The notes beneath the pieces were generated by a model. It searched no databases, was not told the origin of the DNA, and saw only the letters and a list, made by a program, of their open reading frames with translations. Below are positions 1-58,807 of a stretch of 64,000 nt of DNA, piece by piece. The translations under genes were made by a program, and so were the position numbers. Positions within the stretch are counted from its first letter, which is position 1; the number at the start of each line of letters is the position of its first letter. Source of the DNA: an uncultured Chloroflexia bacterium (GTDB taxonomy: Bacteria; Chloroflexota; Limnocylindria; Limnocylindrales; CSP1-4); NCBI GenBank assembly GCA_963768655.1, contig CAVYIM010000007.1, positions 160,001 to 224,000 on the forward strand, read 5' to 3'.

Positions 1-810
1 GGCATGGACCGCTTTCGGCGCGAGCCGGCCGCCGATCTCGACTACGACCTTCTGGTCGTGGGCGACTGCGGCGAGCTGGAGCGGATCGGGCCCGTGCTGG
101 AATCGCACCGGGCGCTCTTCGAGCGGGTGCCGATCCTCGACATCGACCACCACGTGTCGAACCGGCATTTCGGCGCCTTCGATTGGGTCGATCCGCGCAG
201 CTCGGCCACGTGCGAGATGGTGACCCTCCTGGCCTGGCGAATGGGCGTCCCGCTGACGGCGGCGGACGGGACGCTCGCGTCGGCCCTTGCGGCAGGCGTG
301 GTCATGGACACCGGCAACTTCCAGCACACCAATACGACGCCGCGCACCCTCGTAGTGGCCGCGGCCCTGCGCGAGGCGGGCGCGCCACTCAGCGAGATCG
401 CCCGCCGGATCTACCGCACCAAGCCCAACAGCCAGCTCGTTCTCTTCGGCCGCGTCCTGTCGAGGCTCGAGTCAGACTGCGGTGGCAGGCTGGTCTGGTC
501 CACGCTCGAACTGGCCGACCTGGCCGCGGCGGGGGCCGGCTCGGACGAGTCCGAGGGTCTCGTCGACATGCTCGCCCAGGCCCGCGACGCCGACGTCGCA
601 ATTCTCTTCAAGGAAGCTGACGGGGCGACACGCATGAGCGTCCGAACGCGCGACGGCGTGGATGCCACCGTGCTGACCGGCACGTTCGGCGGCGGCGGGC
701 ATGCTCGCGCCGCCGGGGCGACCGTCCGCCTGCCGCTGATCGAGGCGCGCCGCGTGGTGCTGGCTCGTGCCGTCGAACTGGTGGAAGCTGGCGGGCCGAA
801 GGCGCAATGA
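1..810 (+). CDS. nrnA: DHH/DHHA1 phosphoesterase (nanoRNase/pAp phosphatase), 5'-truncated by window edge
   Basis: IDHH, DTGNF and C-terminal GGGHARAAG motifs; usual position upstream of truB. Confidence 0.9.
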   Translation, partial: GMDRFRREPAADLDYDLLVVGDCGELERIGPVLESHRALFERVPILDIDHHVSNRHFGAFDWVDPRSSATCEMVTLLAWRMGVPLTAADGTLASALAAGVVMDTGNFQHTNTTPRTLVVAAALREAGAPLSEIARRIYRTKPNSQLVLFGRVLSRLESDCGGRLVWSTLELADLAAAGAGSDESEGLVDMLAQARDADVAILFKEADGATRMSVRTRDGVDATVLTGTFGGGGHARAAGATVRLPLIEARRVVLARAVELVEAGGPKAQ

Positions 811-2642
811 GCGACTTCGGCCGCGCCACGGAAGGCGGGATGGACGGGGTTCTCGTCCTGGCCAAGCCATCCGGCCCCACTTCACACGATATGGTCGGCC
901 TGATACGTCGCCTGAGCGGCACTCGGCGCGTTGGACACGGCGGCACACTCGATCCCTTCGCGTCCGGCGTCCTGCCCGTCTTTCTGGGACTCGGGACGCG
1001 CGTCGTCGAATACCACATGGGCGATGACAAGGCGTATCGAGCCACGATCTGCTTCGGTGCCAGCTCGCCCACGGACGATCGAGACGGGGAGCTCGTCCCC
1101 GGCGATGGGCCGGCGCCGGCTCGCGAGGCGGTCGTGGAGGCGCTCGCCGGATTCCGCGGGTCGGTCGAGCAGCGTCCGCCGGCGTTCAGCGCCATGAAGG
1201 TGGGCGGGCGGCGTGCCTATCAGCTGGCTCGACAGGGTCAGCCAGTCGCGCTCGCTTCTCGGACCGTCAGGATCGACCGACTCGAACTGGTCGAGTGGGA
1301 CGGCTCGGACCCGGATCGCCCCACCGCGGTCCTGGAGATCGAGTGCGGGGCCGGCACCTACGTCCGGTCGCTGGCGCGCGACCTCGGGGAGCGGCTGGGC
1401 TGCGGCGCCTATCTGGGAGCTCTCACGCGAACCCGCAGCGGGCCGTTCCGCCTGGAGGCGGCGCACGATCTCGACGCCGTGCGGGCCGCAGCCGCAGGCG
1501 GGCGAGTGGCCCTGGCCGGACTCCTGCTGCCGGTAGACGTCGGCCTCGAGTCGATCCCGGCCGCGCCCCTTGCCGACGACGAGGTGACGGCGACGGCGCG
1601 CGGCCAGCAGGTGAAGCCCGCGCAGCGGCCCCATGTCGAGCAGGGATCCAGGGTCAGGCTGGTTGATGCGCGCGGAGCACTCGTCGGCATCGGGTCATGG
1701 CGGTCAGGGCGGATCGTGCCGGAGAAGATGTTCGTCGTCCCGACCTCGGCGAATCGCCAGGTCGATGCCGAAGCGCCCGCTTCGCGGAGCCTGCCCGGCG
1801 AGCCGCGGCTGCAATACGCTCGAGCCGGTGTACCGCACGAGGTCGTCCCCGGAGTGGATGCGCTTCGGGCGGAGATGGGCCGGCTGTACGTTGCAGTGGG
1901 CGTCTTCGACGGCCTGCATCGGGGCCACCTCTACCTGCTGCGGGAGCTTCGTCATGCCGCGGCGCGTACAGATGCGAGGCCGGCCGTGATCACGTTCGAT
2001 GCTCATCCCGAAGAAGTCGTGATGGGGCTCGCACCGCCGCTGCTGTGCGATCCGGACGAGCGTCTCGTCCGACTTAGCGCCGCGGGCGCGGAGGTCACCG
2101 TCGTCCAGCATTTCGACCATTCGCTTCGCACGACCACGTATCAGGAGTTCGTCGCCCGCATCCGCGATCGAGTGGACCTGGCCGGCTTCGTGATGACGCC
2201 CGACGCCGCGTTCGGCTACGAGCGCCGCGGGACGCCCGAGGCGCTGACCGCACTGGGTCGGGAAGCGGGCTTCGAAGTCACCATCGTTCACTCGCTGCTC
2301 CTCGACGGCGAGCAGGTCCGCAGCTCGGAGATTCGAAGGCGCGTCGCTGCCGGCGATCTGGCGGCCGCCCAGCGGATGCTCGGCCGGCCGCTCTCGGTCA
2401 CGGGTTGCGTTGACGCGGCTGCGGGCCGCACAGGCGCGGTTCGCATCCGATTCGACCTGCCCGTCGTGCTGCCGCCGCCAGGCCGCTATGCGGTATTGGT
2501 CGGCGCGCCGTGGCAGGCGGATGCCCCGGCCCTCCGTGCCGACAGGCCCGCGACGGGCGTGGTGGACGCCGACGGGCTGACGCTCGAGGATGGGGCCTGG
2601 GAAGATCTGCCGGATCGTTTGAGAGTCGTCTTCAGCGCTTAA
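807..2642 (+). CDS. truB: tRNA pseudouridine(55) synthase fused in frame to an FAD synthetase (FMN adenylyltransferase) domain with degenerate kinase part
   Basis: GHGGTLDP and GTYVRSLARDLG (TruB); GVFDGLHRGH and VRSSEIR (RibF N-domain); single 611-aa ORF; no PTAN kinase motif. Confidence 0.85.
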   Translation: MSDFGRATEGGMDGVLVLAKPSGPTSHDMVGLIRRLSGTRRVGHGGTLDPFASGVLPVFLGLGTRVVEYHMGDDKAYRATICFGASSPTDDRDGELVPGDGPAPAREAVVEALAGFRGSVEQRPPAFSAMKVGGRRAYQLARQGQPVALASRTVRIDRLELVEWDGSDPDRPTAVLEIECGAGTYVRSLARDLGERLGCGAYLGALTRTRSGPFRLEAAHDLDAVRAAAAGGRVALAGLLLPVDVGLESIPAAPLADDEVTATARGQQVKPAQRPHVEQGSRVRLVDARGALVGIGSWRSGRIVPEKMFVVPTSANRQVDAEAPASRSLPGEPRLQYARAGVPHEVVPGVDALRAEMGRLYVAVGVFDGLHRGHLYLLRELRHAAARTDARPAVITFDAHPEEVVMGLAPPLLCDPDERLVRLSAAGAEVTVVQHFDHSLRTTTYQEFVARIRDRVDLAGFVMTPDAAFGYERRGTPEALTALGREAGFEVTIVHSLLLDGEQVRSSEIRRRVAAGDLAAAQRMLGRPLSVTGCVDAAAGRTGAVRIRFDLPVVLPPPGRYAVLVGAPWQADAPALRADRPATGVVDADGLTLEDGAWEDLPDRLRVVFSA

Positions 2643-2756: not shown

Positions 2757-3026
2757 GTGCCGCTCGCGCGGGAAGCGAAGGAACAGGTGATCTCGGATTA
2801 CGCCGTCCATGAGGGCGACACTGGCTCCGCAGAGGTGCAGATTGCGCTCCTGACCGAAAGGATCAAGGAGCTCACGGAGCATCTGCGGGGCTTTCCGAAG
2901 GACAACCAGTCCCGCCGCGGCCTCCTCAAGCTCGTCGGACAGCGAAGGCGCCTTCTTGCTTACCTGATCAAGAAGGACAACGCCCGCTATCGCGCCGTCA
3001 TCGCACGGCTCGGACTTCGCCGCTAG
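2757..3026 (+). CDS. rpsO: 30S ribosomal protein S15
   Basis: [16 protein letters not shown]...[19 protein letters not shown]; GGAGG RBS before GTG. Confidence 0.98.
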
Positions 3027-3033
3027 CGCTGCA

Positions 3034-3083
3034 GCCGAGGCGCGGGGCAGAGACCTCGCGCAGGTGCGGCTCACGCGCTCGGC
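3034..3083 (+). promoter_or_regulatory. Stem-loop in rpsO-pnp intergenic region (possible processing/autoregulatory leader)
   Basis: GCCGAG-G-CGCG (3034-3044) pairs with CGCG-CTCGGC (3074-3083). Confidence 0.4.
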
Positions 3084-3142
3084 CGGTCCAGGCGAGTTTC
3101 GGAACACCGTCCGTCCTCCTGGCTCAGGAGGAATACAAGCCC

Positions 3143-5731
3143 GTGTCTCAAACATTCGAGACGCAGTTCGCAGGACGCACCCTCAGCATCGAGACCGGCA
3201 AGCTGGCCATGCTCGCCGGCGGTGCCGTCACGGTCCGCTTCGGCGACACGATGGTGCTCGGCACCGCAAACCGGGCCGATCCGCGGCCCGGCCTCGACTT
3301 CTTCCCCCTCACGGTCGAGTTCGAAGAGCGCATGTACGCCGCCGGCAAGATCCCGGGCGGTTTCATCAAGCGTGAGTCGCGTCCGTCGGAGCAGGCCATC
3401 CTGGCCTGCCGCCTGACCGACCGCCCGATCCGGCCGCTCTTCCCCGAGGGCTACAAGGACGACATCCAGATCGTGATCACGGTCCTTTCCACGGACCAGG
3501 AGAACCAGACCGACGTCCTCGGCACGTTTGCCGCGTCGTGCGCTCTGACGATCAGCGCCATCCCGTTCCTCGGACCCATCGGCGCCGTCCGTATCGGCCG
3601 CATCGACGGCGAGTTCGTCGTCAATCCGACGATCAGCGACCTCGAGCGCTCCGACATCGACCTCATCGTGTCGGGGACTCGCGACGCGATCATGATGGTC
3701 GAGGCCGGTGCCTCGATCGTCCCCGAAGACGTCATGGCCGACGCCATCCTCTTCGGCCATCGCGCCCTCCAGCCGCTCATCGACATCCAGGATGAGATGC
3801 GCGCGGCCGTCGGCAAGCCCAAGACGGTGGGTTACCTCGAGCCGGGCACCGCTTCGGTCCTCGAGTTCGTCCACAAGGTGAGCGAACGTGGCGCCGAGTT
3901 CGTCGTCCTGGACACCGAGACGACCGGCCGCGACGCCAAGATGGCGGACCTCGTCGAGATCGGCGCAGTGCGTGTCCGCGACGGCGAGATAGTCGACCGC
4001 TTCTCCACCTTCGTGAACCCGGGCCGCACGATCTTCGGCGCCCAGATGCACGGCATCACGGACGCGGACGTGGCCGGCGCCCCGGCCCCGCGCGACGCCG
4101 CGCTGCGTTTCCTCGAGTTCGCCGGCACGAGCAGCCTGATCGGGCACAACGTCGGCTTCGACCTGGGCTTCATCGAGCAGGCGCTCGGCGAACCCGGCAA
4201 GTTCGCCGAGGCGAGCTACTTCGACACTCTGGCCATCGCCCGCGAAGGCTACCCGGATCTCGAGTCGTACAAGCTTGGCGACATCGCCCGCTTCTTCAAT
4301 CTCACGGTCGAGACGGCCCATCGCGGTCTTGCCGACGCCGAGACCACGGCCGCCATTCTGGCCGAGTTCGCCAGGGATTTGCCGCCGCGCATCCAGCTGC
4401 TCGAAGACGCCATCGCCGTCTCCATCCGGGCCAACCGCCAGGAAGGCCAGGACTCGGCGGCCCTGCTCGAAGCCGCACGTCGCCAGGCGCGCGTCAGCAA
4501 GAGCCTCTTCCAGCTCGTCCAGAAGAAGACCGTCCGCAAGCTGATCTTCGACGAGGGCATCCGCATGGATGGCCGCGGCGTCGACGACATTCGCCCGATC
4601 TCCGTTGAGGTCGGCGTGCTGCCACGAGCCCACGGCTCCGGTCTGTTCACGCGCGGCCAGACCCAGGCCCTGACGGTGGCCACGCTGGGTCCCGCTTCGG
4701 ACGTCCAGCGGATCGACACGATCAGCCCCGAGACGGAGAAGCGGTATCTACACCACTACAACATGCCGCCGTACAGCACCGGCGAGAACAAGCCGATGCG
4801 CGGTCCCGGTCGGCGCGAGATCGGTCACGGCCACCTCGCCGAGCGGGCACTGCTGCCGGTCCTGCCGTCGGAGGACGAGTTTCCGTACGTCATCCGCCTC
4901 GTCAGCGAGTGCGTGACCTCGAACGGTTCGACCTCGATGGCCTCGACCTGCGGTTCCAGCCTGGCCCTCATGGACGCCGGCGTGCCGATCAAGGCCGCCG
5001 TCGGCGGCGCCGCGATGGGCCTGATCAGCGAGCCGGACGGACGGTTCGTGATCCTGACCGACATCCTCGGCAAGGAAGACGCCTTCGGCGACATGGATTT
5101 CAAAGTGACCGGCACCCGCGAGGGCGTGACGGCGCTGCAGATGGACATCAAGGTCAAGGGCATCAGCGAGGCGATCATCCGCCAGGGCCTGGAGAAGGCC
5201 CACGCCGCTCGAATGGCGATCCTCGACAAGATGGATGCGGTCATCCCGGCGAGCCGCACGGAGATGAGCAACTTCGCGCCTCGCATCATCACCATCAAGA
5301 TCAATCCCGAGAAGATCCGCGACATCATCGGCAAGGGCGGCTCCGTGATCCGCAAGATCCAGGAGGAGACCGGCACCGAGATCAACGTGGAGGATGACGG
5401 CACGGTCCAGATCGCCGCGGTGTCGGGTGAGAACTCGCGCAAGGCGGTCCAGTGGATCGAGTCGCTCACTCGCGACGTGGAGATCGGCGGCCTGTATCTG
5501 GGCAAGGTGACCCGGATCATGGGCTTCGGCTGCTTCGTGGAAATCCTGCCGGGCAAGGAGGGCCTGGTCCGGATCGGAGAGCTGGCCGACTACCACGTGC
5601 CCACAGTCGAGGACGTGGTTTCAGTCGGCGACGAGGTCATGGTCGTGGTCACCGAGATCGACAGGCAGGGCCGCGTCAATCTCTCCCGCAAGGCCGCGAT
5701 GCAGCGTCATCTGGCCCGCACCGAGAGCTGA
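3143..5731 (+). CDS. pnp: Polynucleotide phosphorylase with internal DEDDh exonuclease domain
   Basis: FFPLTV, KIPGGFIKRE, RREIGHG, SNGSTSMAS, GDMDFKV, KH (IIGKGG) and S1 motifs; insert ~3896-4369 with VLDTETTG / GHNVGFD / HRGLAD. Confidence 0.97.
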   Translation: MSQTFETQFAGRTLSIETGKLAMLAGGAVTVRFGDTMVLGTANRADPRPGLDFFPLTVEFEERMYAAGKIPGGFIKRESRPSEQAILACRLTDRPIRPLFPEGYKDDIQIVITVLSTDQENQTDVLGTFAASCALTISAIPFLGPIGAVRIGRIDGEFVVNPTISDLERSDIDLIVSGTRDAIMMVEAGASIVPEDVMADAILFGHRALQPLIDIQDEMRAAVGKPKTVGYLEPGTASVLEFVHKVSERGAEFVVLDTETTGRDAKMADLVEIGAVRVRDGEIVDRFSTFVNPGRTIFGAQMHGITDADVAGAPAPRDAALRFLEFAGTSSLIGHNVGFDLGFIEQALGEPGKFAEASYFDTLAIAREGYPDLESYKLGDIARFFNLTVETAHRGLADAETTAAILAEFARDLPPRIQLLEDAIAVSIRANRQEGQDSAALLEAARRQARVSKSLFQLVQKKTVRKLIFDEGIRMDGRGVDDIRPISVEVGVLPRAHGSGLFTRGQTQALTVATLGPASDVQRIDTISPETEKRYLHHYNMPPYSTGENKPMRGPGRREIGHGHLAERALLPVLPSEDEFPYVIRLVSECVTSNGSTSMASTCGSSLALMDAGVPIKAAVGGAAMGLISEPDGRFVILTDILGKEDAFGDMDFKVTGTREGVTALQMDIKVKGISEAIIRQGLEKAHAARMAILDKMDAVIPASRTEMSNFAPRIITIKINPEKIRDIIGKGGSVIRKIQEETGTEINVEDDGTVQIAAVSGENSRKAVQWIESLTRDVEIGGLYLGKVTRIMGFGCFVEILPGKEGLVRIGELADYHVPTVEDVVSVGDEVMVVVTEIDRQGRVNLSRKAAMQRHLARTES

Positions 5732-7775: not shown

Positions 7776-9444
7776 ATGCCTGAATCACAGATACCGCTTC
7801 GAATCATCCCCCTCGGAGGCGTGGGGGAGATCGGCAAGAACATGTACGTCTTCGAGTATGGCGACGACATCGTCGTCGTCGACTGTGGACTCATGTTCCC
7901 CGATGAGGAGATGTTCGGGATCGATCTGGTGATCCCCGACGTCACCTACCTGCGCGAGAACCGAGAGAAGGTCCGCGCCTTCCTGATCACTCACGCCCAC
8001 GAGGATCACGTCGGCGGGCTGCCATACGTGCTCCCGTACTTCCCCGGCGTGCCCGTGTATGCGTCAACGCTGGCCCGCGGCCTGCTCGGCATCAAGATCA
8101 AGGAGCACAAGCTCCACAACAACCCGCTCTTGCCCCTGGATCCGGGCGACAACCTCGAGATCGGGCCGTTCCGCGTCGAGCCGTTCCGGATCAGCCACTC
8201 GAATTCCGGACGCGATGGGAATCGCCCTCCACACGCCGATCGGGACGGTCGTCACGACGGGCGACTTCAAGTTCGACCACACGCCGGTCGACGGCCGCCG
8301 GTCCGACTTTGCCATGCTTTCGCGCCTGGGCGAGGACGGCGTGGTCTGCCTGCTCTCAGATTCGACTCGGGCCGAGAGTCCCGGCTACACGCTCTCTGAG
8401 CGGACCGTCGGTGAGACCTTCCGCGAGATCATGGAGCCGCTGGACGGCCGGGTCATCGTGGCCACGTTCGCCAGCAACATCGCCCGCATCCAGCAGGTCA
8501 TCGACGCCGCCGCGACGTTCGACCGCAAGGTCGCGGTCGTGGGCCGCTCCATGGAGCAGAATTTTCGCATCGCGACTGACCTTGGGTACCTGACGTATGC
8601 CCCAGGCCAGATCGTGGGCAAGGATCAGATCGGGTCCACGGCGGCGGACAAGATCGTCATCGCCACGACCGGCGCCCAGGGGGAGCCAATGGCCGGCCTG
8701 GCCCGCATGGCCAACCGCGACCACCGCTTCGTTGAGATCCAGCCGGGCGACACCGTAATCGTCAGCGCCAGCCCGATCCCCGGCAACGAAGAGTATGTGG
8801 CTCGGACCATCGACAACCTCTTCAAGGCCGGCGCCAATGTCTACTACCACACCGTCAAGCACGCCCACGTTTCGGGCCACGCCAGCCAGGAAGAGCTGAA
8901 ACTGATGCTGGGCCTGACCAGGCCGAAGTACTTCATCCCGATTCACGGCGAATTCCGGATGCTTGTCCAGCACGGCCGCCTCGCCGTGGAGACCGGGGTG
9001 GCCCCTGAGAACGTGTTCATCATCGAGAACGGCCAGGCCATCGAGTTCTTCGCGGACGGCACCGCCCGGCGCGCCGCCCCCGTAACCTCCGGCTACGTGC
9101 TCGTGGACGGGCTGTCCGTCGGCGACGTCGGCGAAGTGGTCCTGCGCGACAGGCGGGCGCTCGCCAGCGACGGCATGTTCATCATCGTCGTGACCGTGGA
9201 TAAGCAGACCGGGAAAGTGGTGGCTCGGCCCGAGATCGTGACTCGCGGCTTCATACACGGGAACGAGCGAGACCCGCTCATCGACGGGGCGGTGGAGCAC
9301 ATCATGGCCGCGGTCGAGAGCCCGGGCGATCGGACCAGCGAGGTGGGCCTTCTCAAGAGCCAGATCAAGGACGAAGTGTCGCGGTATCTCTACGAGCAGA
9401 CGCGGCGGCGGCCGCTCGTCTTCCCGGTCGTGGTGGAGGTCTGA
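7776..9444 (+). CDS. rnj: Ribonuclease J, split by one extra A at ~8202 (probable sequencing error)
   Basis: PLGGVGEIGKN and THAHEDH in ORF 7776; TGDFKFD and HVSGHA in ORF 8059; removing one A restores ISHSIPDAMG. Confidence 0.93.
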
Positions 9445-11814
<2,370 letters not shown>

Positions 11815-11818
<4 letters not shown>

Positions 11819-42017: not shown

Positions 42018-43709
42018 CTACGAAGTCGGGGCGACGGCGCGCCCCGGGACGATCCGCCCGCGCAGCGCGAACGGGCCCGCGAACTCGACGCGGACGGTCA
42101 CGGTGCGGCCGACGAGCTCGGGGTCGCCGGACAGGTGGACGAGCTTGTTGTGGCGAGTCCGACCCGCGAGGGCGACGCTGCCGGCCCCGGCGGCGCCATA
42201 GAGACTCGGTACTCGGAGCGAAGCGTCAGCCGGGGGCGGGTCCTCTTCCGCGGCTGAGGCGGAGCGCTTGAGCGGCGTGATCAGCTCCACGAGCACCTCG
42301 ACGTCGCGTCCGAGCCATGCCCTGTTGCACTCCAGGCCGATCGACTCCTGGCAGGCCAGCAGGGCGTTCAGGCGGCGCCGCTTGACCGCCGCGGGCACGT
42401 CGTCGGCCATGCGCAACGCCGGAGTTCCAGGCCGTGGCGAGTAGGCCGCGGCGAAGACCGTATCGAACCGGATCTCCTCCATTACGCGCAGCGTGGCCTC
42501 GAACTGCGCCTCCGTCTCGCCGCAGAACCCGACGATGACATCCGTCGAGACCGCGATCCCCGGCACCGCTTCGCGTATCCCGGCGAGCCGCTCGCGATAG
42601 TGGTCGACCGTGTATTGGCGCCCCATCCGCTGCAGCATGGCGTCGTCGCCCGACTGGATCGGCAGATGCAGGTGCTCGCAGACGCTCGGGCATTCGGCCA
42701 TGGCGTCGATCAATCGGTCCGAGAGATCCCACGGATGGGACGTTATGAAGCGCAGGCGCGGAATGGCCGGGCCGCCCTGAGGGCCTTCGATCGAGTCGAT
42801 CGCGCGCAGCAATTCGGCCAGATCGGGGCGGCCGCGCAGGTCGAGCCTGTGCCCGCTCGATCTTTCCGTCGAGATGTGGCCGAACCGTTCTTCCGCCGGC
42901 AGATCGTGGCCGTAGCTGTTCACGTTCTGGCCGAGCAGGGTCAGCTCCGCGAACCCGGCCGCGGCGATGCTTTCCGCCTCGGCGACGATGTCATCGAATG
43001 GCCGGCTGCGCTCGGGTCCGCGCGAGAACGGGACGATGCAGTAAGTGCAGGTCTTGTCGCAGCCGTAGACGATCGGCAGCCAGGCAGAGCTGGCCGAAGA
43101 GCGGGCGACGCGGCCCTCGGCCAGGGCCGTTGCCCGGCTGGGCGGCAGATTGTCGGCGGCGCTGACCGGCCTGCCGGAGACGACTGTCGTGGCCGCCGTC
43201 GCCGCCGCCCGGAGGCCGACGGGAGCCTGCGCGGAGACCAGGCCCAGCCGCAGCGCCAGCTCGGGTTCCTCGTCGGGCCGCAGGAACATGTCGACCGCCG
43301 GGAAGCGTCGAGCCAGGCCGGCGCGTTCGGACTCGCGGACGCCGCAGCCGGTCAGCACGACCCGCAAACCGGGTTTGGCCCGCTTCAGTTCGGCGAGCTG
43401 GCCCTGGCGGCCGATGACTTTCGCCTCGGCGTGCTCGCGGACGGCGCAGGTGTTGATGACGATCAGGTCGGCCAGCTCCATCGAGGGCGCCCGCTCGCAG
43501 CCGACGGCCAGCAGCTGGCCGGCCATCTCTTCGGAGTCGCTCTGGTTCATCTGGCAGCCGAGGGTCCAGAGAAAGAAGCCGGGCATCTCGTGCAGGCCGG
43601 GCCGGAACTCGGCGACGGCCGGATCCACAGCCGGCGGGACGGCGCGGGGCGCCAGCTCGACCCGTGGGACAGCTGGCGGCGCGAGAGCGCCCTCCGGCCG
43701 CACCGTCAT
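42018..43709 (-). CDS. miaB: tRNA-i6A37 methylthiotransferase
   Basis: TLGCQMN, NTCAVRE, GCDKTCTYC radical SAM motif, TRAM domain. Confidence 0.95.
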   Translation of the reverse strand: MTVRPEGALAPPAVPRVELAPRAVPPAVDPAVAEFRPGLHEMPGFFLWTLGCQMNQSDSEEMAGQLLAVGCERAPSMELADLIVINTCAVREHAEAKVIGRQGQLAELKRAKPGLRVVLTGCGVRESERAGLARRFPAVDMFLRPDEEPELALRLGLVSAQAPVGLRAAATAATTVVSGRPVSAADNLPPSRATALAEGRVARSSASSAWLPIVYGCDKTCTYCIVPFSRGPERSRPFDDIVAEAESIAAAGFAELTLLGQNVNSYGHDLPAEERFGHISTERSSGHRLDLRGRPDLAELLRAIDSIEGPQGGPAIPRLRFITSHPWDLSDRLIDAMAECPSVCEHLHLPIQSGDDAMLQRMGRQYTVDHYRERLAGIREAVPGIAVSTDVIVGFCGETEAQFEATLRVMEEIRFDTVFAAAYSPRPGTPALRMADDVPAAVKRRRLNALLACQESIGLECNRAWLGRDVEVLVELITPLKRSASAAEEDPPPADASLRVPSLYGAAGAGSVALAGRTRHNKLVHLSGDPELVGRTVTVRVEFAGPFALRGRIVPGRAVAPTS

Positions 43710-44803
43710 GAAGGCGAGGCCTCGGTGCGGATCGTCAAACGGCGGCGGCCGAGCAGCGCGTACAGGTTCGTGGCGTCCTCGTCGGGTACGTAGAGAGCGG
43801 CGTGCGCCTCAGCATACGTCTCCCCGTCGCCGTGATAGTCGCTCCCGCCCGTGGGAACCAGGCGCAGCTCACCCGCGACGTCGGCCAGCTCGGCGATGGT
43901 GTCGGAATCGAAGTGGCGGTAGTGGACCTCTAGCCCGCCCAGCCCGACCTTTTTCAGGTCCTCGACCAGTTCGCGGCGCTCGTAGGCATCGGCGAAATGG
44001 GCCAGTGCTGGCAGTCCGCCGGCGGCCCTGATGGCGGAGATGGCCTCGTTCGGACCCAGGCCCTCTCGGGGCACGTATGCCGGCTTGCCGCGGCCCAGGA
44101 GACGCTGCATCGCGTCGTCCACGCTCGAGGCGTACCGCGCGGTCACGAGGCAGCGGGCGATCTGTGGCCTGCCGAGCGCGGCGCCGGACGCGGCCGGCTG
44201 TCCGGCCAGCAGCTCGTGGACCTGATCGTCGACCGAGTAGCCGAGCTGTGCCAGCCGGTCGACGATCCGACTGAACCGGGTCAGGCGAAAGCAGCGCTGG
44301 CGTTCGAGCGTCGCTTCGAAGAAGTCGTCGTTGACGTCTACGCCCAGGCCGAGGATGTGCAGCTCGCCTTCCCACAGCTGGGGGATGCCCATGGCGACGC
44401 TGTTGATCTCGACCGCCGGCAGCAGCTCGAGCGATAGGGGCGGCTGGCCGGGCGCGAGCAGCTCCCTGACGCCTGCCAGCGTGTCGTGGTCGGAGAGCGC
44501 CAGGACCTGCACGCCGGACGTCGCGGCCGCGCCGACCAGCTCGCGCGGCTCGAGAACGCCATCGGAGCGGCAGCTATGCGTGTGCAGGTCCACCCGTGAC
44601 GGATGCGGGGGTACGACCCGATCGCCCTGAGTGGCCCGGTAGGCGGTGCTGCGGTACCGGTAGGAGCCGGTGTCGCCCTTCAGCGGATCGGCCGGTTTGG
44701 GGGCGCGTGCGCGATCGTTCTGCGCGGAGCCCGTCGGGGCCTTCTCGCTCGCGCGGGCTGCCCGCCGGAGAAGCTCGTCTCGGCGCCGCTGGTCGTCGGT
44801 CAC
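43706..44803 (-). CDS. PHP-domain phosphoesterase (YciV/TrpH-like)
   Basis: DLHTHSCRSDG, SDHDT, GGSDYHG; start uncertain. Confidence 0.88.
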   Translation of the reverse strand: MTDDQRRRDELLRRAARASEKAPTGSAQNDRARAPKPADPLKGDTGSYRYRSTAYRATQGDRVVPPHPSRVDLHTHSCRSDGVLEPRELVGAAATSGVQVLALSDHDTLAGVRELLAPGQPPLSLELLPAVEINSVAMGIPQLWEGELHILGLGVDVNDDFFEATLERQRCFRLTRFSRIVDRLAQLGYSVDDQVHELLAGQPAASGAALGRPQIARCLVTARYASSVDDAMQRLLGRGKPAYVPREGLGPNEAISAIRAAGGLPALAHFADAYERRELVEDLKKVGLGGLEVHYRHFDSDTIAELADVAGELRLVPTGGSDYHGDGETYAEAHAALYVPDEDATNLYALLGRRRLTIRTEASPS

Positions 44804-44804
44804 G

Positions 44805-45644
44805 CTAGACCTCGACGACGCGCGCGACCCGCTCGATCGCCAGCGCCCGACCCGTGTCGGGATCGACGTCGATCTGGCAGGCATTGAAGACCACCGGACC
44901 GGTCCCCACTTCGAAGCGCGTCGGCAGGCCGTTCAGAAAGCGAGGGATCACCGTGGCCGGATCGAAGCCGATGACGCTGTGAACAGGCCCGCACATGCCG
45001 AGATCCGACTGGTAGGCCGTGCCCTTTGGCATGATCCGCTCGTCGGCGGTGGCAACGTGGGTGTGCGTCCCTACGACCGCGCTAGCTCGACCGTCGAGGT
45101 AGATGCCAAAGGCGTTCTTCTCGCTGGTCAGCTCGCAGTGGAAGTCCACGACGCGGACCGGCGGCAAGGGCTCGGAGGCCTCGTCGATCAGGCGGTCGAA
45201 GTCGGTGAAGGGATTCTCGATCGGGGTCATGTACGTGCGGCCCTGGAAGTTGAGCACGGCCACGTCCGTGCCGTCGGCGGCGCGGAAGATGCCCCAGCCG
45301 CGTCCCGGGACCCCGTCCGTGCCGTAGTTGTGCGGGCGAAGGATCCGCTCGTCGTGTTCGAGTTCCTGGTACATCTCGCGCTTGTCCCAGATGTGGTTGC
45401 CCGAGGTGATGACGTCTATCCCGGACTTGAACATGCCCTCGGCGGTGGAAGCGGTCAGGCCCATTCCGCCGGCAACGTTCTCGCCGTTGGCGGTGACCAG
45501 GGCGATGTCGCGCTCGTGCCGAAGGCCGGGGAGAAGCGCCTCGACGGCCAGCCTGCCGGGCCGCCCGATCAGGTCGCCGATCATGAGGATGCGGCAGGCA
45601 CGCCGGCCTGCCGGGGTAAGGGGCGGGCCGGCGGGGACGGACAC
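44805..45644 (-). CDS. ymdB: YmdB-like metallophosphoesterase
   Basis: GDLIG.PG, NGEN, TSGNH, DFHCE.TSEK, GTHTHV; downstream of rny. Confidence 0.93.
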   Translation of the reverse strand: MSVPAGPPLTPAGRRACRILMIGDLIGRPGRLAVEALLPGLRHERDIALVTANGENVAGGMGLTASTAEGMFKSGIDVITSGNHIWDKREMYQELEHDERILRPHNYGTDGVPGRGWGIFRAADGTDVAVLNFQGRTYMTPIENPFTDFDRLIDEASEPLPPVRVVDFHCELTSEKNAFGIYLDGRASAVVGTHTHVATADERIMPKGTAYQSDLGMCGPVHSVIGFDPATVIPRFLNGLPTRFEVGTGPVVFNACQIDVDPDTGRALAIERVARVVEV

Positions 45645-45650
45645 GGGCGG

Positions 45651-47186
45651 CTACTTGGCGTATTCGACGGCCCGCGTCTCGCGGATGACCGTCACCTTGA
45701 TCTGGCCCGGGTAGGTGAGGCTGGCCTCGATCTTCTTGACCACGTCGCGGGCCAGGCGGGTGGCGGTGACGTCGTCGATCTGTTCCGGCCTCACGAGGAT
45801 GCGAACCTCGCGACCGGCCTGGACCGCGAAGCTCTTCTCCACTCCCTCGAAGCTCTCCGCGATCGCCTGCAGGTCCTCCAGACGCCGGACGTACGTTTCC
45901 ATCGACTCGCCGCGGGCGCCTGGCCGCGAGGCGCTGATCGCGTCCGCGACCTGGACGATGGGAGCCTCCATGGACGCGTACTCGACTTCCTGGTGGTGGG
46001 CCGCGATGGCGTTCACGACCTTCGGCGAGAGGTTGTGACGCTGCGCGATCTGGGCTCCGATCTGGGCGTGCGGTCCTTCGACTTCGTGGTCGACTGCCTT
46101 GCCCATGTCGTGGAGCAGGCCGCCGACCTTGGCCGCCTGCACGTCCAGGCCCAGCTCCGAGGCGATCATTGCCGCAAGTCGGCTGGTCTCGACGGAGTGG
46201 ACGAGCACGTTCTGGCCGTAGCTGGTCCGATACTTGAGGCGGCCCAGTAACTTCACTATCTCCGAGGGAAGGGCCGGGATCCCGGCGTCGTATATGGCCT
46301 GCTCGCCGGCCTGGCGCATGACCAGGTCAACCTCCGCGCGCGCCTTGGCGACGACCTCCTCGATGCGTCCGGGGTGGATGCGGCCGTCGGCCATGAGCTT
46401 GGTCAGGGCCAGGCGGGCGACCTCTCGGCGGACCGGATCGAAGGCGCTGATGACGACCGTCTCGGGGGTGTCGTCGATGATCAGGTCGACGCCGGTGGCC
46501 TGCTCCAGGGCCCGTATGTTGCGACCCTCGCGACCGATGATGCGGCCCTTCATCTCGTCGTTCGGCAGATGGACGGCGCTGACCGTGTGCTCGGCCGTGT
46601 GGTCCGCCGCGATGCGCTGCATCGTGGTGATGACGATCTCACGGGCGCGATCCTCGGCCTCGTCGCGGGCGGCCCGCTCGATCGCCTTGGCGATGCGGAC
46701 GGCATCGTGCTCGGCTTCGTCACGAACCGCGTCGAGGAGCTGAGCCTTGGCCTCGGCCGCGGTCATTCCGCTCACGCGCTCTAGCGCAGCAACGTGCTCC
46801 TGCTGGGCCGTGGCGAGCTGTTGACGGCTGTTCTCGAGCTCGCGTTCGCGCTCCAGGAGCTTGCGATCGCGCTGCTCGAGCATGTCGGACCGGAGATCGA
46901 GTTGTTCGTCGCGGGCGAGGAGACGGCTCTCCAGGCCGGAGAGCTCCGCTCGTTTGGCACGGGCCTCGTCTTCGGCCTCACGCGCCAGCCTTAGCTTCTC
47001 GTCCTTGGCTTCGAGGATCAGTTCCTTCTGCTGGGCGCGGGCCTCGGCGACGATGCGACCGGCTTTGTCCTGGGCGCTCTTCACCGCCTGATTGGCCAGC
47101 TGCCCGCGAGCCAGGAACCCGACGACCACGCCCACGGCAAGGGCAACCACAGCGGCTGTGGCCACAAGGGCTAGTTCCATATTCAT
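45651..47186 (-). CDS. rny: Ribonuclease Y
   Basis: TM anchor, coiled coil, [32 protein letters not shown]. Confidence 0.98.
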
Positions 47187-56787: not shown

Positions 56788-57561
56788 CTACGCCGTCAGT
56801 CGGATCGCCTCGGCCAGGTCGAGGCGGTCCGAGTAGATCGCTCGGCCGACGATCGCACCAACGCAGCCGAGGGCGCGGACGGCCGCAATGTCGGCCAGCG
56901 ACGAAACCCCGGCCGAGGCGACAATTCCGCCCCGGCCAGGCTCGACCATGCGGCGCAGGAGATCGAAGTCCGGGCCCATCAGCAGGCCGTCGCGCTCGAT
57001 CGCGGTGACGATGAAGGTTCGCGCGCCGCGATCCGCCAGCGACGCCAGCGCCTCCTCGGCCGGCATGCCCGAGGCGCCCGGGACCCAGCCCTGGCCCACG
57101 GCCATGCCGTCGCGGACGTCGAGAGCGATCGCGATGCGCTCGACACCGAAACGGGCGACGAGCCGACCGGCGAACGCGGCATCCCGCAACGCCGCGGTGC
57201 CGACAACGACCCGCGCCGCCCCCGCGTCAAGAGCAGCCGCCACCGCTTCCTCGTCTCGCAGCCCGCCGGCCACCTCGCAGGCCGCGCGTCCCCCCACAGC
57301 ACCGACTATGCGGCCGACCAGCTCAGTCTGGCGCCCCGCACCGTCCCGGGCGCCGTCGAGGTCGACGATGTGGATCCACCGCGCCCCGGCGGCCACGAAG
57401 CCACAGGCGACCTCGACGGGCTCTGCAGCGAAGCGAGTCTCCCGAGCGAAGTCGCCTTCCGCCAGCCGGACCACCTGGCCGCCCCGGAGGTCGATGGCAG
57501 GCATGACCTCGAACTTTCGGGGTCTCCTGGACGCCTCCTCGGCTTGCGTCTCTTCTAGCAT
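56788..57561 (-). CDS. hisA: ProFAR isomerase
   Basis: PAIDLRGGQVVRL, HIVDLDGA, GGLR, ASAGV; start uncertain. Confidence 0.93.
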   Translation of the reverse strand: MLEETQAEEASRRPRKFEVMPAIDLRGGQVVRLAEGDFARETRFAAEPVEVACGFVAAGARWIHIVDLDGARDGAGRQTELVGRIVGAVGGRAACEVAGGLRDEEAVAAALDAGAARVVVGTAALRDAAFAGRLVARFGVERIAIALDVRDGMAVGQGWVPGASGMPAEEALASLADRGARTFIVTAIERDGLLMGPDFDLLRRMVEPGRGGIVASAGVSSLADIAAVRALGCVGAIVGRAIYSDRLDLAEAIRLTA

Positions 57562-57576
57562 GCTACTATGCTACTA
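57544..57576 (+). promoter_or_regulatory. his operon promoter overlapped by putative TrpR-family operator
   Basis: TTGCGT-17-TATGCT; palindrome TAGCATGCTA 57556-57565; TGCTACTA x2 at 57561-57576. Confidence 0.6.
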
Positions 57577-57620
57577 CACGACAACGGGCCGTGAGAGGCC
57601 GTCAAGAAGGGGAACCGATC

Positions 57621-57950
57621 ATGAGCTCGATGGAAGGCTGGCGCGACGAGGCCACGGGCGAACTGTTCGAAGCCGTGCTGCGTCTCGCCACGGTGGACGA
57701 AGCCTCGGCGTTCTTCCGCGACCTGTGCACTCTCGGCGAGCTGCACGACATGGCGCAGCGCTGGGCGGTCGTTCGGCTCCTCGACCAGGGCATGCACTAC
57801 GCCGAGATCTCGCACCGGACCGGTGCGAGCACGGCCACCGTCACCCGCATCGCCCAGTGGCTTCACCACGGCGAGGGTGGCTACCTGCGCGCCCTGGAGC
57901 GCCTCCGCGAAGGCGGCGCGCCAGCCAATCCGGGAGAGAAGACACGATGA
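57621..57950 (+). CDS. TrpR-like YerC/YecD regulator (probable histidine repressor)
   Basis: FFRDLCTLGEL..MAQRW.V..LL, TGASTATVTRIA, GEGGY. Confidence 0.9.
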   Translation: MSSMEGWRDEATGELFEAVLRLATVDEASAFFRDLCTLGELHDMAQRWAVVRLLDQGMHYAEISHRTGASTATVTRIAQWLHHGEGGYLRALERLREGGAPANPGEKTR

Positions 57951-58807
57951 CGCGCCGGCTGCGCCTGGCAATCCCGAACAAGGGCCGGCTGGTCGAGCCG
58001 ACCGTCCGCCTGCTGCGCGATGCCGGGCTCGTCTTCGAGGCCGGCGAGCGAGCGCTCGTGGCGCGCGTCCAGAACTTCGATCTCGACATCCTCTTCGTGC
58101 GGACCAACGACGTCGTCGAATTCGTGAGCGACGGCGTCGCCGAGCTGGGCGTGACCGGGCTCGACCTGCTGGCGGAGGCGGGCTCGGATGCTCCGCAGCT
58201 GCGCAGCCTCGGGTTCGGGAAGTGCCGCCTCACCATCGCCGTCCCGAACGACTCGCCGTACCGCGTGCCGGAGGATCTGGCGGGCCTCCGCGTCGCCACG
58301 TCGCACATGAACCTCACGAAGGGCTTCTTCTCGGGTCGTTCCATTCCCGTCGACGTCATTCCAGTTTCGGGCGCGGCTGAAGTCGCGCCGCGGCTTGGCC
58401 TCGCGGAGGCGATCGTCGATCTGGTGTCGACCGGCTCGACCATGGTTGTGAACGGCCTGCGGCCGATCGAGGAGGTCTTCGCCTCGGAGGCGGTGCTGGT
58501 GGCCAACCCGACGGCGCTGCGCGACCGCTTCGACGCCCTCGACACGATCCAGACGATGCTCAGCGCCACGCTGGCCGCGCGCGATCGCAAGTACCTGATG
58601 ATGAACGCCCCCGAAACCAGGTTGATCGAGCTGGAGGATCTCCTGCCCGGATTGGAGTCGCCGTCCATCATCCCGCTGGCACACAAGGGCATGGTCGCCA
58701 TTCACTCGGTCGTCGAGGCCGACGCCGTCTGGTCGCTGTTGCCCCGCCTCAAGGCCGCCGGCGCGTCCGGCATCCTGATCCTGCCCATCGAGAAGCTCGT
58801 CCAATGA
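57947..58807 (+). CDS. hisG: ATP phosphoribosyltransferase (long form)
   Basis: LAIPNKGRL, IVDLVSTGST, C-terminal regulatory domain. Confidence 0.96.
   Translation: MTRRLRLAIPNKGRLVEPTVRLLRDAGLVFEAGERALVARVQNFDLDILFVRTNDVVEFVSDGVAELGVTGLDLLAEAGSDAPQLRSLGFGKCRLTIAVPNDSPYRVPEDLAGLRVATSHMNLTKGFFSGRSIPVDVIPVSGAAEVAPRLGLAEAIVDLVSTGSTMVVNGLRPIEEVFASEAVLVANPTALRDRFDALDTIQTMLSATLAARDRKYLMMNAPETRLIELEDLLPGLESPSIIPLAHKGMVAIHSVVEADAVWSLLPRLKAAGASGILILPIEKLVQ

Follow-up and report, generated by a model that had tools for sequence, protein, structure and literature searches.

The pnp gene of an uncultured Chloroflexota bacterium encodes a polynucleotide phosphorylase (PNPase) of an apparently undescribed arrangement, in which a DEDDh (DnaQ-like) 3'-5' exonuclease domain is nested inside the alpha-helical domain between the two RNase PH-like domains. 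The gene lies on the forward strand of a stretch of 64,000 nucleotides, hereafter the window (contig CAVYIM010000007.1, positions 160,001 to 224,000, GenBank assembly GCA_963768655.1; GTDB lineage Limnocylindria, Limnocylindrales, CSP1-4), as an open reading frame (ORF) of 862 amino acids at 3143..5731, starting with GTG and having GGAGG 11 nt upstream. A preliminary description, made by a model from the letters of the window, had already noticed the in-frame insert in PNPase and placed it at 3896..4369, which are indeed codons 252-409 of this ORF. The explanation that fits best overall, and that we somewhat favour from the sequence, is that of a housekeeping pnp whose active-type DEDDh sites would act on free single-stranded 3' ends.

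Domain organization of the fused PNPase

The whole protein reaches 944 bits with TIGR03591, the PNPase equivalog model, whose cutoff is 525.05, and is thus a member of this family; it also matches the solved PNPase 5yjj in the Protein Data Bank (PDB) with 716 bits. Pfam recognizes two RNase_PH and two RNase_PH_C stretches, RNase_T, KH_1 and S1. The RNase_T domain (PF00929) occupies residues 254-406, covering its complete profile (positions 1-164 of 164; E 1.3e-29, 104.3 bits against a cutoff of 24), and falls between RNase_PH/RNase_PH_C (best RNase_PH_C stretch at residues 144-208) and the second RNase_PH (residues 483-615), which bears out the in-frame DEDDh insert of the preliminary description. 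The motifs quoted there are read directly in the sequence and all are intact: VLDTETTG (D257, E259), GHNVGFD (D340) and HRGLAD (H393, D398), corresponding to Exo I (DxE), Exo II (D) and Exo III (Hx4D) of the DEDDh superfamily, as well as SNGSTS (residues 593-598) and DAFGDMDFK (residues 646-654) of PNPase. The last two are presumably the phosphate-binding and metal-site catalytic motifs, and the loop that we take to be the counterpart of the FFRR-type loop of PNPase reads GGFIKRE.

Compared with canonical PNPases (5yjj, 8zaw, 7ogk and 3cdi), the protein possesses the same first and second RNase PH-like domains (PH1 and PH2), helical domain, KH and S1 domains and motifs, with rpsO upstream of the gene, and the full-length AlphaFold2 model aligns with solved PNPases at template modelling (TM) scores, normalized to the target, of 0.63-0.85. 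The difference is approximately 160 extra residues: solved bacterial chains have 705-784 amino acids, and none of them aligns across the insert.

Recurrence of the fusion in related genomes

When a protein search was scored on residues 215-470, which include both junctions, 1130 clusters at E <= 1e-5 were found among the 8000 scored. The best 120 of them, from JGI, ENA and NCBI records, all carry PF00929 together with RNase_PH, with 72-100% identity over this region, and most have 861-863 amino acids. Likewise, contigs of species-representative genomes were scanned with a four-row alignment of the insert, where at least 597 stretches matched, 542 of them encoding a relative; the locus counts given in this work refer to the best 80 of at least 542 relatives. 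In all 80 loci the DEDDh stretch lies within an ORF colinear with the whole 862-residue protein (66-95% identity), this ORF being broken into two to four pieces by frameshifts in 10 of them. The related loci include contigs longer than 1 Mb. Along pnp, the G+C content at third codon positions (GC3) is uniform, at 0.85-0.91, and no repeats were found flanking the insert.

The preliminary description had named a chimeric assembly at the junctions among the outcomes that would refute it. That assembly or binning falsely joined a dnaQ-like gene to pnp can practically be dismissed: every related record is a metagenome-assembled genome (MAG) and the window has an apparent frameshift elsewhere, in the split ftsK (approximately 11141-11157), but all 80 loci, which come from many independent assemblies and include the contigs beyond 1 Mb, have the identical in-frame architecture, as do the best 120 protein clusters of the three sources, and the codon composition is uniform. 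A recent mobile insertion is ruled out as well by the recurring architecture, the absence of flanking repeats and the uniform GC3.

Insertion point in the alpha-helical domain

The Pfam model of the PNPase helical domain, PF03726, matches only by its profile positions 49-80 of 81, at residues 447-478 and with 21.4 bits, below the cutoff of 24.6; instead of a continuous linker, the helical domain is interrupted by the DEDDh insert. Residues 406-486 show a weak match (E 0.022) to residues 269-348 of PNPase 8zaw. In the AlphaFold2 model, a helix at 237-247 precedes the DEDDh fold, and a long helix (395-430) leaves it, followed by helices 438-449 and 453-471. The mean predicted local distance difference test (pLDDT) of the full-length model is 71.7, with values of 85-95 over residues 240-480, and the model of the insert alone reaches a pLDDT of 91.9 and a predicted TM score of 0.88. 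As helices flank the insert on both sides, the C-terminal ones weakly matching PF03726 and 8zaw, the helical domain is split and largely kept (about 20 plus 56 residues), with the DEDDh domain nested in it. The preliminary description was therefore right in locating the insert at this domain, but the domain is divided (helices 237-247 and about 410-471) and not replaced.

Among the residues of the helices that follow the insert, R446, R447, R450 and K453 are invariant in 80 of 80 rows of the alignment described below, R465 also being invariant, and the residues opposite the first four in 8zaw are not basic, according to the weak alignment. These invariant basic residues possibly form a path for nucleic acid. 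In PNPase structures, the helical domain occupies the face away from KH/S1. According to two reports, the KH domains sit atop the PNPase ring (PMC3351181) and the helical domain regulates the access of phosphate and nucleoside diphosphates (NDPs) to the active site (PMC6181284).

Kind and origin of the DEDDh domain

Judged by sequence and by the predicted fold, the insert is closest to the exonucleases of PolC, DinG, DNA polymerase III epsilon and Cas2-DEDDh, and not to Orn or RNase T. Taken alone, it passes TIGR00573 ('exonuclease, DNA polymerase III epsilon subunit family') with 79.2 bits against a cutoff of 71.5, and its best NCBIfam match is PRK07883 ('DEDD exonuclease domain-containing protein', 150.7 bits, below the whole-protein equivalog cutoff). 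It stays below the equivalog cutoffs of TIGR01406 (epsilon, dnaQ_proteo; 86.5 against 222.7 bits), of PolC NF001688 (122.3 against 873) and of DinG-exo NF005981 (127.9 against 789). Among PDB sequences, the matches are led by the PolC exonucleases 9qpc (E 4.8e-22) and 2p1j (E 5.7e-22), followed by Staphylococcus aureus DinG (8zef, E 3.9e-15), Cas2-DEDDh (8fy9, E 1.1e-13), polymerase III epsilon (E 8e-11) and ExoX (E 1e-7). RNase T gives a partial match at E 0.0069 with no stretch passing, no Orn chain is found at E <= 0.01, and no Orn model is present among the 25 shown of the 29 NCBIfam families matched.

The fold comparison with Foldseek follows the same direction. The PolC exonuclease 9qpc ranks first (E 6e-12, root-mean-square deviation (rmsd) of 2.0 over 171 columns), then DinG, a Streptococcus DnaQ domain and epsilon, the last (1j53, 2gui) with TM scores of 0.81-0.82 and rmsd of 1.9-2.5, so that the predicted fold is DnaQ/RNase H-like. 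RNase T occupies rank 33 and the best Orn rank 42 (TM 0.57), and ExoI and TREX1/2 are also among the DNA-end neighbours. The hallmarks of Orn are a leucine wedge, a 5'-phosphate cap, a 3' lobe and a homodimer (PMC9779919); both sequence search and fold ranking leave the insert outside the Orn/REXO2 and RNase T groups.

Regarding its origin, residues 215-470 were compared with 1.84 billion representatives, resulting in 28,655 matches at E <= 0.001 and 43 at E <= 1e-30. A Pfam scan of 24 top matches found five fused PNPases or fragments of them, including a full-length one of 864 residues (P0125) with 51% identity across the junction region, and 19 DEDDh proteins that are not PNPases, with 28-45% identity. 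The latter are mostly tandem DEDDh+BRCT proteins, PolC-type polymerases or fragments, the rest being a triple DEDDh protein with a UVR motif, a DinG-like helicase and DEDDh-only proteins. In a FastTree phylogeny of 131 DEDDh domains, all eight known fused rows fall in one clade of 14 rows (SH-like support 95%), together with five fragments and P0149, a free-standing DEDDh protein of 273 residues; the next neighbours outside are the DEDDh-DinG helicases P0226 and P0199. A single fused clade with DinG neighbours fits one acquisition of the domain from the PolC/DinG/epsilon branch, as far as these sequences indicate. Moreover, RNase_T lies within the PHP span of three PolC proteins (P0167, P0189 and P0194), providing a precedent for the nesting of this fold in another domain.

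Conservation and selection

Conservation was counted in 80 rows, the window and 79 loci, leaving out the locus whose best ORF piece starts at residue 250 (L068). D257, E259, D340 and H393 are each kept in 80 of 80 rows and D398 in 79, and these residues are retained down to 57% identity of the insert. In the PNPase motifs, none of the 74 non-gap rows departs from N594 to S598 and none of the 72 from D646, D650, D652 and K654, while position 593 is serine in 48 rows and glycine in 26. The segment of residues 231-465 has a length of 232-236 residues across rows. As a separate observation, residue 336 (4148..4150), within the GH-N/S-VGFD of Exo II, is asparagine in 31 rows and serine in 49, so that the family falls into two sets.

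Identity to the window protein averages 65% for the DEDDh domain and 67% for the helices that follow, compared with 83% for PH1, 85% for PH2 and 92% for KH-S1. The ratio of nonsynonymous to synonymous substitutions (dN/dS), estimated by the Nei-Gojobori method as a median over 602 usable pairs of 800 sampled, is 0.21 for PH1, 0.40 for DEDDh, 0.49 for the helices after the insert, 0.21 for PH2 and 0.18 for KH-S1; because of the extreme GC3 (about 0.9), dS is probably underestimated and the absolute ratios inflated, and only their ranking is safe. As estimated from these sequences, the insert is under purifying selection, weaker than that on the core.

Proposed function and alternative explanations

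An active hydrolytic 3'-5' exonuclease fused to a phosphorolytic ring is well supported by the sequence, and the conserved residues would make the protein a 'two-chemistry nuclease', as the preliminary description called it. In the proposed mechanism, one ancestral event would have placed a complete DnaQ-like DEDDh domain inside the helical domain linking the two RNase PH domains. The fused protein would still form the PNPase trimer, having three metal-dependent hydrolytic 3'-5' sites beside three phosphorolytic sites, and the hydrolytic ones would hang on the helical domain, the reported gate of phosphate and NDP access. These DEDDh sites would then most likely hydrolyse free single-stranded 3' ends left unfinished or excluded by the ring, the candidate substrates being limit oligonucleotides of PNPase, or tails and fragments unable to thread it. 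Nucleoside monophosphates would be released without phosphate, so that decay would become partly phosphate-independent. This hydrolysis of free 3' ends is the preferred mechanism because PNPase leaves 'a short oligonucleotide product', in the words of PMC11572968.

A wider reading is offered as a tentative possibility: the protein could be a single-polypeptide 'bacterial exosome', serving as the main 3'-5' RNA-decay machine of a whole, environmentally abundant lineage, with three DEDDh sites on the helical-domain face that would allow the degradation of polymer to mononucleotides, also when phosphate is scarce, and with a DNA-proofreading fold recruited to RNA turnover.

Some observations count against the favoured explanation. 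The closest characterised relatives of the insert (PolC, DinG, Cas2-DEDDh, epsilon and ExoX) are DNA 3'-end enzymes, and a DHH/DHHA1 gene resembling NrnA occurs near pnp in 49 of 80 loci, so the finishing of oligonucleotides may already be covered; both weaken the finishing of short oligonucleotides that the preliminary description had proposed. Furthermore, the evolutionary rate of the insert is roughly double that of the PNPase core, by identity and by dN/dS, one row of the 80 (L050) has histidine at D398, and the full-length model is of moderate quality overall.

The affinity of the insert to DNA enzymes raises the explanation that it is a DNA 3'-end exonuclease and that the fusion serves a secondary role of PNPase in DNA repair or recombination, by resection or trimming of single-stranded 3' tails, rather than RNA decay. 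This is rather unlikely, even though all of its strong neighbours in sequence and fold, ExoI and TREX1/2 included, act on DNA ends, its tree neighbours outside the fused clade are DEDDh-DinG helicases, and Bacillus subtilis PNPase is cited as a 3'-5' exonuclease able to process DNA 3' tails (PMC12525004). The host protein retains all its RNA-handling parts, namely KH, S1 and the site of phosphorolysis, and its gene the rpsO-pnp position; udg nearby and recA/recX, at a distance of about 43 kb, belong to the usual housekeeping genes and point to no specific link. Besides, PMC12525004 also describes that DinG-type DEDDh domains degrade single-stranded DNA and that S. aureus DinG also degrades RNA, and homology consequently does not fix the preference for ribose or deoxyribose. 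It is improbable, on the other hand, that the insert is mainly structural or regulatory, acting as a bulky lid that gates phosphate and NDP access or binds a partner, its exonuclease chemistry having little importance. The position within a domain that reportedly controls entry to the active site (PMC6181284), the faster evolution relative to the core and the four invariant basic residues, which could serve binding, agree with such a role; however, a purely structural function is hard to reconcile with the near-perfect retention of five catalytic residues, in 79 or 80 of 80 rows, at insert identities as low as 57%.

Comparison with known systems and novelty

The PolC exonucleases (9qpc, 2p1j) and epsilon (1j53, 2gui), the best matches of the insert, share its Exo I, II and III motifs, and PolC also has its own DEDDh domain nested in another domain, PHP; the host here, however, is a phosphorolytic RNase and not a DNA polymerase. 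DinG (S. aureus 8zef; B. subtilis) and Cas2-DEDDh (8fy9) likewise join a DEDDh domain of the same subfamily to a nucleic-acid machine, but there the domain is joined at a terminus to a helicase or an integrase subunit; the present fusion is internal, and the identity is 26-31%.

The exosome with Rrp6/Rrp44 is similar in that a PH ring and a hydrolytic DEDD-type exonuclease work together. Rrp6 and RNase D belong to the DEDDy subfamily, and REXO2 is of the Orn type, all of them outside the DEDD subfamily of the insert. Since Rrp6 is DEDDy, that is, of RNase D type, and is bound non-covalently, the exosome-Rrp6 parallel drawn in the preliminary description holds at the functional level only. Related pairings of separate proteins are reported for the Caulobacter crescentus degradosome, with PNPase and RNase D (PMC4245959), and for human mitochondria, where PNPase is followed by REXO2 (PMC7261184). 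In all these systems the partners are separate, while here a single chain unites both chemistries, with a PH ring that is catalytic in its own right.

Few enzymes of RNA decay are studied as well as PNPase, whose plan of five domains is generally regarded as universal. The present protein would be a lineage-wide variant with a second, chemically different nuclease nested in the presumed gate of the active site. Provided that both sites work, nature would here offer a covalent model for the pairing of PH ring and DEDD exonuclease known from the exosome, with a bearing on the clearing of PNPase limit products and on decay at low phosphate. No paper describing a PNPase with a DEDD or DnaQ domain was found in searches of full-text literature, which reach as far as the journals outside subscription. 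In the main text of a 2026 study of Limnocylindria genomics (PMC13212565), PNPase and exonuclease are absent. Public names for the protein are inconsistent: NCBI uses 'polyribonucleotide nucleotidyltransferase' and most of the JGI-named rows use 'DNA polymerase III epsilon subunit family exonuclease', and the counts of replication genes in these MAGs could be misled by the latter.

Lineage and genomic neighbourhood

Chloroflexota MAGs account for 78 of the 80 loci, labelled Candidatus Limnocylindrales (16), 'uncultured Chloroflexia' (37) or unspecified Chloroflexota/Chloroflexi (25). A tree built from the 80 proteins shows complete intermixing of the labels 'Chloroflexia' and 'Limnocylindria' (15-16 changes against a mean of 14-15 when shuffled), indicating one lineage under differing submitter labels. 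The two remaining loci (L034 and L063), on contigs of 1279 and 2200 nt labelled Actinomycetota and Verrucomicrobiia, carry the same fused pnp with 66-71% identity, and are most likely binning errors, not transfers.

By tblastn, 78 of the 80 loci have rpsO immediately upstream of pnp, the contigs of the other two beginning inside pnp. Downstream, asd is present in 70, a UDG-family gene (udg) in 67 and RNase J in 65 of the 80. This canonical rpsO-pnp position and the conserved downstream genes indicate that the gene is the pnp orthologue of the lineage and not a stray paralogue. When residues 440-862 were used as query, the best 120 matches (81-96% identity) proved without exception to be pieces of fused proteins or truncated calls of the same family, a result that is silent on an unfused paralogue. 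A regulatory RNA was sought in the rpsO-pnp spacer: no Rfam family reaches its gathering score anywhere in the window, and the predicted RNA fold of 3024-3150 is not unusual (z -1.17). The coordinates of these features and of other genes of the window are collected in Table 1.

Table 1. Domains and motifs of the fused PNPase and other genes in the window
Feature	Position	Strand	Basis
DHH/DHHA1 phosphoesterase, cut by window start	1..810	+	DHH and GGGH motifs; upstream of truB, same direction
TruB-RibF ORF (611 aa)	807..2642	+	TruB TIGR00431, 215 bits, aa 12-223; RibF FAD-synthetase part PF06574, aa 358-507
rpsO (ribosomal protein S15), 89 aa	2757..3026	+	Name from sequence reading and synteny
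pnp, PNPase with nested DEDDh domain	3143..5731	+	TIGR03591 944 bits, Pfam
First RNase PH-like domain (aa 1-230)	3143..3832	+	Pfam RNase_PH (2 stretches), RNase_PH_C; alignment with 5yjj residues 18-280
Alpha-helical domain, N-terminal remnant (aa 231-250; helix 237-247)	3833..3892	+	AlphaFold2 secondary structure
DEDDh (DnaQ-like, RNase_T) 3'-5' exonuclease domain (aa 251-409), predicted	3893..4369	+	PF00929, TIGR00573, model pLDDT 91.9, Foldseek
Exo I motif D257-x-E259	3911..3919	+	D 80/80, E 80/80 rows
Exo II aspartate D340 (GHNVGFD)	4160..4162	+	D 80/80 rows
Exo III motif H393-x4-D398	4319..4336	+	H 80/80, D 79/80 rows
Alpha-helical domain, C-terminal part (aa 410-465)	4370..4537	+	Predicted helices; PF03726 positions 49-80; weak 8zaw match
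Second (catalytic) RNase PH-like domain (aa 466-705)	4538..5257	+	Pfam RNase_PH aa 483-615; SNGSTS 4919-4936, DAFGDMDFK 5078-5104
KH domain (aa 716-773)	5288..5461	+	PF00013, E 3.4e-12
S1 domain (aa 780-850)	5480..5692	+	PF00575, E 8.6e-16
RNase J	8059..9444	+	RNase J1 model, 515 bits; called ORF starts at profile position 136
ftsK, first ORF	9445..11157	+	FtsK_SpoIIIE positions 15-136
ftsK, second ORF	11141..11818	+	FtsK_SpoIIIE positions 173-221
PHP-domain protein	43706..44884	-	Like 3',5'-bisphosphate phosphatase/RNase RNM, 145 and 134 bits, below cutoffs
RNase Y	45651..47186	-	
HisG (ATP phosphoribosyltransferase, aa 405-636)	56888..58807	+	

The DHH/DHHA1 gene, two genes upstream of pnp, is NrnA-like, but reaches only 72 bits against the NrnA cutoff of 350; through it the lineage may already possess a nanoRNase. 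Next to it, TruB and the flavin adenine dinucleotide (FAD) synthetase part of RibF share one ORF in the window, as they do in 20 of the 53 loci holding both; in the other 33 they are unjoined (separate, partial or frameshift-split), and the fusion looks limited to part of the set or due to a lost stop. RNase J, RNase Y and the PHP-domain protein, all within the same 64 kb as pnp, are a Bacillus-like RNA-decay toolkit. Regarding the remaining genes, ftsK is present as two overlapping ORFs, the second of which begins with the Walker-B-like VIIVDELADLMM, and this split reflects a frameshift, which may be genuine or stem from an indel in the assembly. Finally, the approximately 400 N-terminal residues of the HisG ORF have no Pfam match at E <= 1e-5, and may represent a fusion or an over-long ORF call.

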